Below, piece after piece: positions 34,651 through 34,880 of a DNA stretch of 64,000 nucleotides. Source of the DNA: Candidatus Saccharimonadota bacterium. Its GTDB lineage: Bacteria; Patescibacteriota; Saccharimonadia; QS-5-54-17. Position 1 is the stretch's first letter. The number at the start of each line of letters is the position of its first letter. The stretch spans positions 6,919-70,918 of the forward strand of contig JBJHCT010000001.1 of the NCBI GenBank assembly GCA_050486185.1. The letters run 5' to 3'. The position numbers and the translations under genes are program-made. The notes beneath the pieces are model-generated. The model made no database searches, had not been told where the DNA came from, and saw nothing but the letters and a program-made list of their open reading frames with translations.

Positions 34651-34880
34651 CTCGCTATTAGCAGCTATCAACTGCGATTCATGAGTTAGTGAAGCGAGGT
34701 GGAAAGAAATTTTTACTAGCCACAAGCAAGTAAAAAGAGTAGAGTCCAACGTTTTTTGACACGTTAGATCGAGCGATTAAATTAAGTATCCCTAAAGTTA
34801 GCAGGATGGTACCGTGCTTTTGTTGTTTCAACAATAAGCGCTCCTGCAAAAACCATAGAGGATACTTTTTTGTTTTTATA
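34651..34880 (+). promoter_or_regulatory. Candidate T-box riboswitch leader (Ile specifier) upstream of ileS
   Basis: (i) A Stem-I-like hairpin: outer helix ctcgct (34651-56) / agcgag (34693-98), inner helix gcag/ctgc, with loop cuAUCAa exposing AUC (34667-69, the Ile codon) followed by A. (ii) A T-box-consensus-like motif agcaGGaTGGtACCGtG (34798-34816). (iii) An antiterminator-like fold: A1 gcagga (34801-06) / tcctgc (34842-47), a 7-nt bulge UGGUACC (34807-13), and A2 gugc/gcgc with an inner 6-bp hairpin ttgttg/caacaa. (iv) An enclosing helix agtatccct (34785-93) / agaggatact (34857-66) followed directly by T6GT5 (34866-77). (v) An anti-SD ctcct inside the A1 3' strand, complementary to the ileS SD aaggagag (34922-29). 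Confidence 0.5.

Follow-up and report, generated by a model that had tools for sequence, protein, structure and literature searches.

An isoleucine T-box family in ileS leaders of Saccharimonadales with a likely noncanonical outer-helix terminator

The closest known relatives of the RNA element described here are the short-Stem-I T-boxes of actinobacterial ileS genes (M. tuberculosis, N. farcinica, M. smegmatis), reportedly described by Sherwood, Grundy and Henkin in 2015 and compared here by their published description only. Actinobacteria pair a type-2 isoleucyl-tRNA synthetase (IleRS) with such a short-Stem-I T-box, and they are the usual hosts of Saccharibacteria. To our knowledge, almost no RNA regulators are known in the genome-reduced bacteria of the candidate phyla radiation (CPR). 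We analyzed the 352-nt leader of ileS in a 64,000-nucleotide stretch of contig JBJHCT010000001.1 from a Candidatus Saccharimonadota bacterium (the whole stretch is called the window), where a T-box had been proposed from the sequence alone (the original prediction). The leader folds more stably than its shuffled counterparts (z = -2.7), and positions 34651-34877 of the window are a member of an ileS leader family found in almost all Saccharimonadales (Saccharibacteria/TM7). A literature search returned no paper joining T-boxes with Saccharibacteria, Patescibacteria or CPR, which is no proof of novelty.

Two described classes provide the reference points for this family. In the actinobacterial class the specifier lies in the hairpin loop of Stem I, and Stem II and its pseudoknot become essential (TBDB preprint; PMC7583486). 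In the canonical T-box the 3' strands of helices A1 and A2, which flank the tRNA-binding bulge, serve as the 5' strand of the terminator (PMC7583486), and Stem III persists in both states with the T-box bulge becoming a linker in the terminator form (PMC5570125). The family described here resembles the former class in its decoding half and shares a U-tract with the latter, and its predicted OFF helix differs from that of both.

Membership in the family rests on two groups of relatives, the ileS loci of 80 species-representative genomes, all of them Saccharibacteria/Saccharimonadales with 64-71% identity in the encoded protein, and a further 80 metagenomic ileS loci with 63-77% identity. No closer relative of the window was found among them, the best ileS identity being 71% in genomes and 77% in metagenomes. 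A motif search located AA-NNN-GGAUGGUACC 60-150 nt before the start codon in most relatives, with a hairpin of the form NNNN-CUAUCAA-NNNN about 110 nt further upstream. A covariance model built from a MAFFT alignment of 60 leaders (R1) gave full-length matches of 72-158 bits in 65 of the 80 metagenomic loci, all outside its training set. A second model (R2) was built from 60 of the metagenomic R1 matches, so that the window was not in its training set. In the window, R2 aligns to 34653-34873 along the whole model (positions 1-180 of 180; 81.9 bits, E about 1.5e-20) and has no second match anywhere in the 64 kb. Among the 80 Saccharimonadales species genomes, 77 gave an R2 match before ileS (74 full-length, three cut by contig ends). 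The original reading of the leader as an isoleucine T-box is borne out by these matches. Chance resemblance was considered as well, and is excluded by the score and uniqueness of the R2 match.

This clade is missed by standard annotation because its members score 15-34 bits against an Rfam T-box threshold of 93. Scanning the whole window at Rfam gathering thresholds gave no match. In a permissive scan of the leader, the T-box model RF00230 aligned over its full length with 14.9 bits (E 0.42) and was the sole cis-regulatory Rfam family matched, and relatives reach 27-34 bits with E values down to 6e-4. The original prediction had looked to Rfam and to orthologous leaders for its check; the Rfam match stays below threshold (14.9 versus 93 bits), whereas the bulge and specifier are conserved in the orthologous leaders. 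The K-turn, AG-bulge and distal-loop features of the RF00230 Stem I are absent, their place being taken by a 4-bp hairpin on a short basal helix, and the Rfam alignment of the leader accordingly deletes the K-turn and the distal region. The same permissive alignment implied a GCG specifier, which we ruled out since the comparative data put AUC in the terminal loop.

Conservation in the decoding half is strong and specific. Columns without any variation in the MAFFT alignment of 60 leaders hold the specifier AUC, GAA and UAGA of the S-turn, AAG of the RRRxG string, and G-UGG-ACC. With no T-box information supplied, RNAalifold recovers Stem I, a Stem II in two parts, and helices A1 and A2 separated by exactly the 7-nt bulge, and 23 of the 24 pairs in this consensus show compensatory changes. 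An independent alignment (A3) has 94.9% of its cells paired and a covariation score of 0.699; shuffles score 0.242, and shifting the partners by 1-3 columns lowers the score to 0.05-0.10. These statistics are inflated by the kinship of the sequences. AUC is present in 60/60 leaders of the first alignment and 60/60 of A3, and is followed by A in 58/60. The hairpin loop that had been predicted to present AUC followed by a purine is found in the window, where it fits the family consensus Y-U-AUC-A-N in a terminal 7-nt loop, and all four pairs of the specifier stem show compensatory changes. Below this hairpin, relatives carry a short basal helix at the site of the window helix P0 (UCC/GGA, UGC/GCA, UGCAUU/AAUGCA), with modest support from a comparison of cognate with non-cognate strands (10.32 versus 9.81; 14 of 3000 permutations as good).

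Stem II and its pseudoknot follow the same pattern. Compensatory changes occur in all eight pairs of the lower and upper Stem II helices, between which the S-turn sequences GAAGAA and AGUAGAA are conserved. The IIA helix consists of two invariant pairs and a co-varying third (GC in 30 leaders, CG in 9, UG in 8, UA in 6), and the F-box C-G-U-N-A is conserved across the family. The IIB loop is matched to the segment after the F-box better in cognate than in non-cognate combinations (9.14 versus 6.90; 0 of 5000 permutations as good).

In the discriminator, A1 is 99% paired with compensatory changes in four of six pairs, and A2 is 100% paired with compensatory changes in four of four; its basal pair is GU in 46 leaders, GC in 27, UA in 22 and AU in 11. 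In the bulge UGGNACC both UGG and ACC are invariant, N being U in 98 leaders, A in 5 and C in 4. AUC, UGGNACC, A1 and A2 are thus conserved and co-varying over more than 100 orthologous ileS leaders. In the major group of the family, AAGxGC and the AA before A1 are invariant, and Stem III shows compensatory changes in all six core pairs. The T-box-consensus-like sequence of the window (AGCAGGAUGGUACCGUG) and the antiterminator-type fold drawn from it, with the UGGUACC bulge between A1 and A2, were placed correctly by the original prediction; exact TGGTACCGTG occurs once in the window, at 34807.

The leader has the core of a T-box, namely a specifier followed by a purine, an S-turn, an F-box pseudoknot, a RAG string and UGGNACC between co-varying A1 and A2. 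It departs from T-boxes in four respects: its score lies below the Rfam threshold, the long-Stem-I features are lacking, the window has no G.U sensor pair, and the terminator topology is not canonical. Judged from this sequence comparison, we consider it close to certain that the leader is a true T-box.

The proposed likeness to the short-Stem-I actinobacterial ileS T-boxes applies to the decoding half and not to the output. Like those elements, the family stands before ileS, has a short Stem I whose terminal loop presents AUC as the specifier and which lacks a platform for the tRNA elbow, and carries the Stem II S-turn, the IIA/B pseudoknot with its F-box, the RAG/RRRxG string and UGGNACC between A1 and A2. 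The restriction to ileS among the aminoacyl-tRNA synthetase genes seen here is also shared; proS (53073-54755) and serS (59908-61224), the other two such genes of the window, have no T-box leader of the ileS type. Unlike the actinobacterial class, the family ends in a hairpin and U-tract instead of a sequestrator of the Shine-Dalgarno sequence (SD), has no conserved anti-SD in A1, and forms an OFF helix that would consume Stem III or the RAG string and leave A1 and A2 intact. The family further differs in its host phylum (Saccharibacteria/CPR), in the basal helix under the specifier hairpin and in an often present extra 5' hairpin.

With the transcriptional T-boxes of Firmicutes (RF00230; B. 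subtilis tyrS and glyQS), the family shares a leader, presumably tRNA-sensing, before a synthetase gene, a specifier followed by a purine, a 7-nt bulge with A1 and A2, and, in most members, a Stem III flanked by RRRxG and AA. A further likeness is that the U-tract terminator is predicted to be more stable than the ON fold, by about -11 kcal/mol in the family and by about -16 kcal/mol in glyQS (PMC5570125). Unlike the Firmicutes elements, the family lacks a long Stem I, a distal platform and an evident K-turn, and its scores stay at the 15-34 bits noted above. The roles of its discriminator parts are also inverted relative to Firmicutes, where the A1/A2 3' strands enter the terminator and Stem III is present in both states (PMC7583486, PMC5570125).

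This inversion emerges from the region that follows the bulge. A U-tract is found after the element in 59 of 60 relatives, where it begins 38-52 nt past the bulge and ends a median of 20 nt from the start codon with the SD directly behind it, and it forms part of the covariance-model consensus. A strand-pairing test with a limit on G.U pairs covered 96 unique leaders. In 89 of them, and in the window as well, the preferred partner of the strand that precedes the U-tract is the segment immediately 5' of A1. The resulting outer duplex averages -13.4 kcal/mol for cognate and -7.8 kcal/mol for non-cognate strands (0 of 2000 permutations as good), compared with a mean of -5.6 kcal/mol for the canonical partner in the A2/A1 3' strands. 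A MAFFT alignment of 74 discriminators from the major group, made without reference to structure, shows compensatory changes in all 13 pairs of the outer helix, and the 94-97% pairing of the outer helix and Stem III falls to 32-60% in slid controls. Because the MAFFT register drifts in the region of Stem III and the 3' strand for some subfamilies, these column counts are backed by the alignment-free cognate versus non-cognate tests.

The outer helix and Stem III share columns 39-45, the 3' strand of Stem III, and are therefore mutually exclusive. Two exclusive helices, both under selection, are the signature of a switch. Minimum free energy (MFE) folding of the 74 leaders points in the same direction. 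RNA ending at the A1 3' strand is predicted to form A1 in 74/74 and Stem III in 53/74, and RNA extended to the U-tract forms the outer helix in 71/74, A1 in 73/74 and Stem III in 1/74. Formation of the outer helix brings a mean free-energy gain (ddG) of -11.3 kcal/mol, and of -13.2 kcal/mol in the window (-33.1 versus -19.9). Since the strand before the U-tract pairs upstream of A1 and not with the A1/A2 3' strands, both A1 and A2 survive in the terminator form. In these models Stem III is lost to the OFF hairpin and the module that binds the tRNA acceptor remains, which reverses the textbook arrangement.

The original prediction had left control open between transcription and translation. Transcriptional control is supported because the U-tract abuts a co-varying helix in nearly all members, and attenuation at the window U-tract is the likely output; the translational half of the proposal is not supported, as discussed below. 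The helix enclosing the element ahead of the T6GT5 tract had been seen correctly (34784-91 with 34860-67), and what was missed is that this helix makes the terminator noncanonical. We also note three mutually unrelated loci (L027, L057 and L138) whose Stem III loops contain similar inserts, each about 40 nt long. The insert is a hairpin of the type GGGGCUCCYGCAAAAC...GUUUUGUGGGGUG and looks like a small inserted or mobile hairpin element.

We conclude, with a probability of roughly 0.7, that the leader is an isoleucine T-box controlling ileS through attenuation, with a noncanonical outer-helix terminator built around an intact A1-bulge-A2 module. Starting from the family membership, the helices established by covariation, the observed partner of the strand before the U-tract and the thermodynamic preference for the outer helix, we infer that the leader binds tRNA, that the U-tract is where transcription terminates, and that the outer helix is blocked when the RAG string and Stem III dock on uncharged tRNA. 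In such a mechanism, the AUC specifier, in the 7-nt loop that caps the short Stem I, would read tRNA-Ile (anticodon GAU) with no distal platform, and the Stem II S-turn and IIA/B pseudoknot would assist decoding as in the actinobacterial ileS T-boxes. The uncharged NCCA end would pair with the UGGU of the bulge. Uncharged tRNA-Ile, held first by AUC and Stem II, would then lock Stem III and the purine latch, leaving the emerging terminator strand unable to extend A1 downward through Stem III, and RNA polymerase would read through. Charged tRNA would be unable to engage the latch, the outer helix would form beside the U-tract, and transcription would stop.

In most members the ON form would thus have Stem III, and the OFF form would have the outer helix. 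In the sub-lineage of the window the outer helix would sequester the RAG string instead of Stem III, and the RAG string would plausibly be contested between the tRNA 3' end, on which it docks, and the base of the terminator, where it pairs. Such a latch has precedent in known T-boxes, where discriminator purines including the AA are required for binding of the uncharged 3' end and grip the NCCA-bulge duplex along its minor groove (PMC7583486). Likewise, the RAG motif of the M. tuberculosis ileS T-box is in direct contact with A76 and the bulge (PMC11297988).

The window belongs to a minority of leaders with no Stem III, which also includes a GYCCC group (e.g. L013, L022, L025, L084, L093, L101, L144) and the pairs L006/L032 and L023/L076. 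All of these leaders have an outer helix whose 5' strand starts at the RAG string. In the window the three pairs nearest the U-tract are A34784-U34867, A34785-U34866 and G34786-C34865. Their outer strands co-vary (GUCCUU/AAGGGC, GCCCU/AGGGC, GUCCC/GGGAC, GCUCC/GGAGC and, in the window, GUAUCC/GGAUAC), and the canonical alternative is broken in several of them. In the window itself the outer duplex is predicted at -11.3 kcal/mol, compared with -6.1 kcal/mol for the canonical UCCU/AGGA pairing.

Besides the kinship that inflates the covariation statistics, a number of observations weigh against an attenuation switch of this kind. We know of no precedent for A1 and A2 being kept in the OFF state, and the coupling of the switch to the charge state of the tRNA is conjecture for that reason. 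In several GYCCC members the canonical terminator pairing is about equal to the outer pairing. The window is the lowest-scoring and most divergent full-length member, tied with L022, and lacks the Stem III hairpin. It has A at the fifth position of RRRxG where the family has G, UA at the aligned AA position before A1, and G34814-C34841 as the basal pair of A2 in place of the G.U wobble that serves as steric sensor for the aminoacyl group. Because its outer helix has no competing secondary structure, the window hairpin (-33.1 kcal/mol) looks like a constitutive terminator. The 67 nt past the U-tract include a perfect TATAAT, and a TTGACA-16-TAAATT match lies inside the element; either could drive ileS without the T-box. 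The proposed competition for the RAG string in the window copy is the weakest link in the argument.

These departures would fit a relic or bypassed T-box. The element would then act as a constitutive terminator or insulator behind the cassette of a diversity-generating retroelement (DGR), whose reverse transcriptase (RT) gene is co-directional and stops 60 nt ahead of the element, and ileS would be driven from a promoter downstream (TATAAT 34906-11) or inside the element. In addition to the loss of Stem III with no alternative partner for the outer strands (MFE -33.1 versus -19.9 kcal/mol), the changes at conserved discriminator positions and the lowest score among full-length members, this explanation accounts for a spacer of 67 nt against a family median of 20 with a perfect -10 hexamer inside it. 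However, all helices of the window are intact, including a lineage-specific 8-bp upper Stem II, a 12-bp A2 and perfect A1 and Stem I, and the AUC, S-turn, F-box, RAG string and UGGUACC are unchanged, which argues for continued purifying selection. Other leaders lacking Stem III (L006/L032, L023/L076 and the GYCCC group) have short spacers with no room for a second promoter, and the TATAAT of the window has a poor -35 hexamer (TTCGGA) and was not called by a promoter scan. We therefore regard a bypassed T-box as unlikely.

Three observations touch on these promoter-like sequences. Several other leaders that lack Stem III and have long spacers (L022, L061/L094) also carry TATAAT-like hexamers after the U-tract, and the post-U-tract TATAAT may be a second, T-box-independent promoter. 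The TTGACA-16-TAAATT match (34756-34783, 10/12) is the best sigma-70-like site of the region and runs from the IIA loop to the linker; transcripts starting from it would lack the decoding domain and most of the terminator 5' strand. The match may be coincidental, TTGAC being the conserved IIB pseudoknot strand.

A T-box with the canonical transcriptional terminator, in which the A2/A1 3' strands would form the terminator, the antiterminator would be destroyed and the outer pairing would be incidental, is the textbook mechanism (PMC7583486), and some GYCCC members (L025, L044, L094, L111, L144) have GCUCC(UG)/(CA)GGGGC hairpins with U-tracts that equal or beat the outer pairing. Across the 96 leaders, the outer pairing is nevertheless the better one in 89, with a canonical mean of -5.6 kcal/mol, and its strands co-vary in 13/13 pairs. 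The window offers only the 4-bp UCCU/AGGA (-6.1 versus -11.3 kcal/mol), and L093, L101, L022 and the window have changed both outer strands together with GCUCCU remaining fixed. These findings make a canonical terminator very improbable and favor the outer-helix attenuator. A translational T-box, in which the CUCCU of the A1 3' strand would sequester the SD AAGGAG unless uncharged tRNA stabilized A1/A2, in line with the original anti-SD proposal, is likewise very improbable. The CUCCU is present and complementary to AAGGAG, and the decoding half resembles the actinobacterial translational class. Against this reading, no more than five contiguous pairs can form between the two sites, which are separated by about 80 nt. 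Of 107 leaders, only 15 have an A1 3' strand resembling CUCCU; they belong to the GYCCC subgroup, where this strand complements the GGGGC strand before the U-tract and not the SD. In most members the SD follows just past the U-tract and is unpaired in all folds, and the MFE structure predicted for the complete window leader also leaves it unpaired.

A broader proposal, which we advance tentatively, is that outer-helix attenuation defines an inverted T-box lineage. Here the A1-bulge-A2 module would be kept in both states and the decision would be made at the Stem III/RAG latch, where uncharged tRNA, by locking the latch, would block the terminator strand from invading Stem III or, in variants lacking Stem III such as the window, from pairing with the RAG string. 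The module was perhaps acquired together with type-2 ileS from actinobacterial hosts, or came from a shared Terrabacteria ancestor. The window IleRS is of the type-2 (Thermus/eukaryote-like) form, with DUF5915 at its C-terminus and bit scores of 661-722 to the group of PDB 1ILE and 8C8U, compared with 311 to S. aureus 1FFY. Together with the short-Stem-I T-box, this form of ileS provides a lead towards gene transfer from host to symbiont.

The family represents a clade-wide regulatory RNA in Saccharibacteria that is invisible to Rfam-based annotation, and models R1 and R2 could be used to annotate it. It joins a decoding module of the actinobacterial type to what is probably a transcriptional output with a terminator that spares A1 and A2. 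In this respect the family lends itself as a natural test of whether the Stem III purine latch takes part in T-box switching, as was recently proposed. If the inverted switch is true, a clamp of Stem III and the purine string would be able on its own to gate transcription. A short-Stem-I isoleucine T-box with type-2 ileS in organisms that live on Actinobacteria may also serve as an evolutionary marker, relevant to the placement of CPR and to gene transfer from host to symbiont. IleRS is a target of antibiotics (mupirocin), and T-box control predicts a response of uncultured episymbionts to isoleucine limitation.

Table 1. Features of the ileS leader and its surroundings in the window.
Feature	Position	Strand	Details	Basis
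DGR target gene	31476-32570	+	Mtd_N domain	
DGR variable repeat (VR)	32448-32564		117 nt, 82% identity to TR	
bAvd	32656-32994	+		
DGR template repeat (TR)	33098-33214		117 nt, 82% identity to VR	
DGR reverse transcriptase	33525-34592	+		
Candidate leader promoter	34598-34627	+	TTGCCA, 18-nt spacer, TG-TAATAT; extended -10 TG; weak	Consensus scan, 9/12 matches
Stem I domain	34651-34698	+	Basal helix P0, specifier hairpin and 17-nt insert (34676-92)	MFE fold
Basal helix P0	34651-56 with 34693-98	+	CUCGCU/AGCGAG	MFE fold; modest support
Specifier hairpin	34661-64 with 34672-75	+	4 bp, GCAG/CUGC; terminal 7-nt loop CUAUCAA 34665-71	
Specifier AUC (Ile)	34667-69	+	Next purine A 34670; 140 nt upstream of bulge	
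Stem II	34700-34748	+	Lower helix 34700-03 with 34745-48; upper helix 34710-17 with 34729-36 (8 bp); loop 34718-28	
Stem II S-turn strands	34704-08, 34738-44	+	AAGAA, AGUAGAG	
Stem IIA/B pseudoknot	34750-34772	+	IIA CGU 34750-52 with ACG 34761-63	
IIB	34756-59 with 34769-72	+	Loop UUGA with UCGA	
F-box-like	34761-66	+	ACGUUA	
RAG / RRRxG purine string	34784-34788	+	AAGUA; bottom three pairs of window terminator helix	
Outer (terminator) helix, 5' strand	34784-34794	+	AAGUAUCC (34784-91) plus CUA	MFE folds
GUU with AAC	34797-34799 with 34851-53	+	Extends A1 by 3 bp in terminator fold; window-specific	MFE only
T-box core	34801-34817	+	AGCAGGAUGGUACCGUG	Read from sequence
Discriminator core	34801-34847	+	A1 GCAGGA 34801-06 / UCCUGC 34842-47; bulge UGGUACC 34807-13; A2 34814-41 (12-bp hairpin)	
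CUCCU (proposed anti-SD)	34841-34845	+		Sequence
Outer (terminator) helix, 3' strand	34856-34867	+	UAG, bulged A, GGAUACUU (34860-67); continuous with U-tract	MFE folds
U-tract	34866-34877	+	U6GU5; presumed intrinsic termination site	Sequence
Small hairpin after U-tract	about 34872-95	+	GUUUUUAUACC UUCG GAUAUAAAC	
Spacer after U-tract	34878-34944	+	67 nt; family median 20	
TATAAT	34906-11	+	Perfect -10 hexamer, poor -35 (TTCGGA)	Uncalled by promoter scan
SD of ileS	34923-28	+	AAGGAG	
ileS start codon	34945	+	ATG	
ileS	34945-37824	+	Type-2 isoleucyl-tRNA synthetase, 959 aa; predicted regulated gene	Pfam tRNA-synt_1, Anticodon_1, DUF5915

The coordinates of the element and its surroundings are collected in Table 1. 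Transcription from the candidate leader promoter would start near 34634. A generic scan found promoter-like sites not to be enriched in the window, and a generic terminator scan was uninformative (21 sites against 12.8 expected), long composite hairpins being invisible to the scanner. A U6 run at 34752-34757 lies in the Stem IIA loop, 3 nt past the Stem II 3' strand, and is absent from relatives; some transcripts might in principle end prematurely there, after Stem II. The original prediction called the ileS leader the longest intergenic region of the window; several gaps of at least 470 nt free of open reading frames (ORFs) exist in the window, counting ORFs of at least 120 aa.

The upstream neighbor of the leader is not a housekeeping gene. 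A complete DGR occupies 31476-34592 on the plus strand directly upstream, and 20 of the 21 mismatches between its template and variable repeats fall at adenines of the template repeat. No tRNA-Ile gene was found in the window or in 120 fetched loci, where the tRNA genes were for tRNA-Trp and tRNA-Leu only; one metagenomic relative (L093) has a tRNA-Leu(CAG) gene at 774-867, about 150 nt upstream of its ileS T-box.

Some relatives have 550-1300 nt between the T-box and the downstream ileS. This arrangement is found in metagenomic loci (L088, 558-1211; L117, L127, L114, L118, L087, L128, L124, L122, L132 and L160) and in loci of species genomes (L048, L026, L050, L018, L053 and L043). In L088, the ORF between the T-box and ileS encodes a GNAT-family acetyltransferase (Pfam Acetyltransf_1, E 6.5e-8), and the T-box of this locus appears to control a GNAT-ileS operon.

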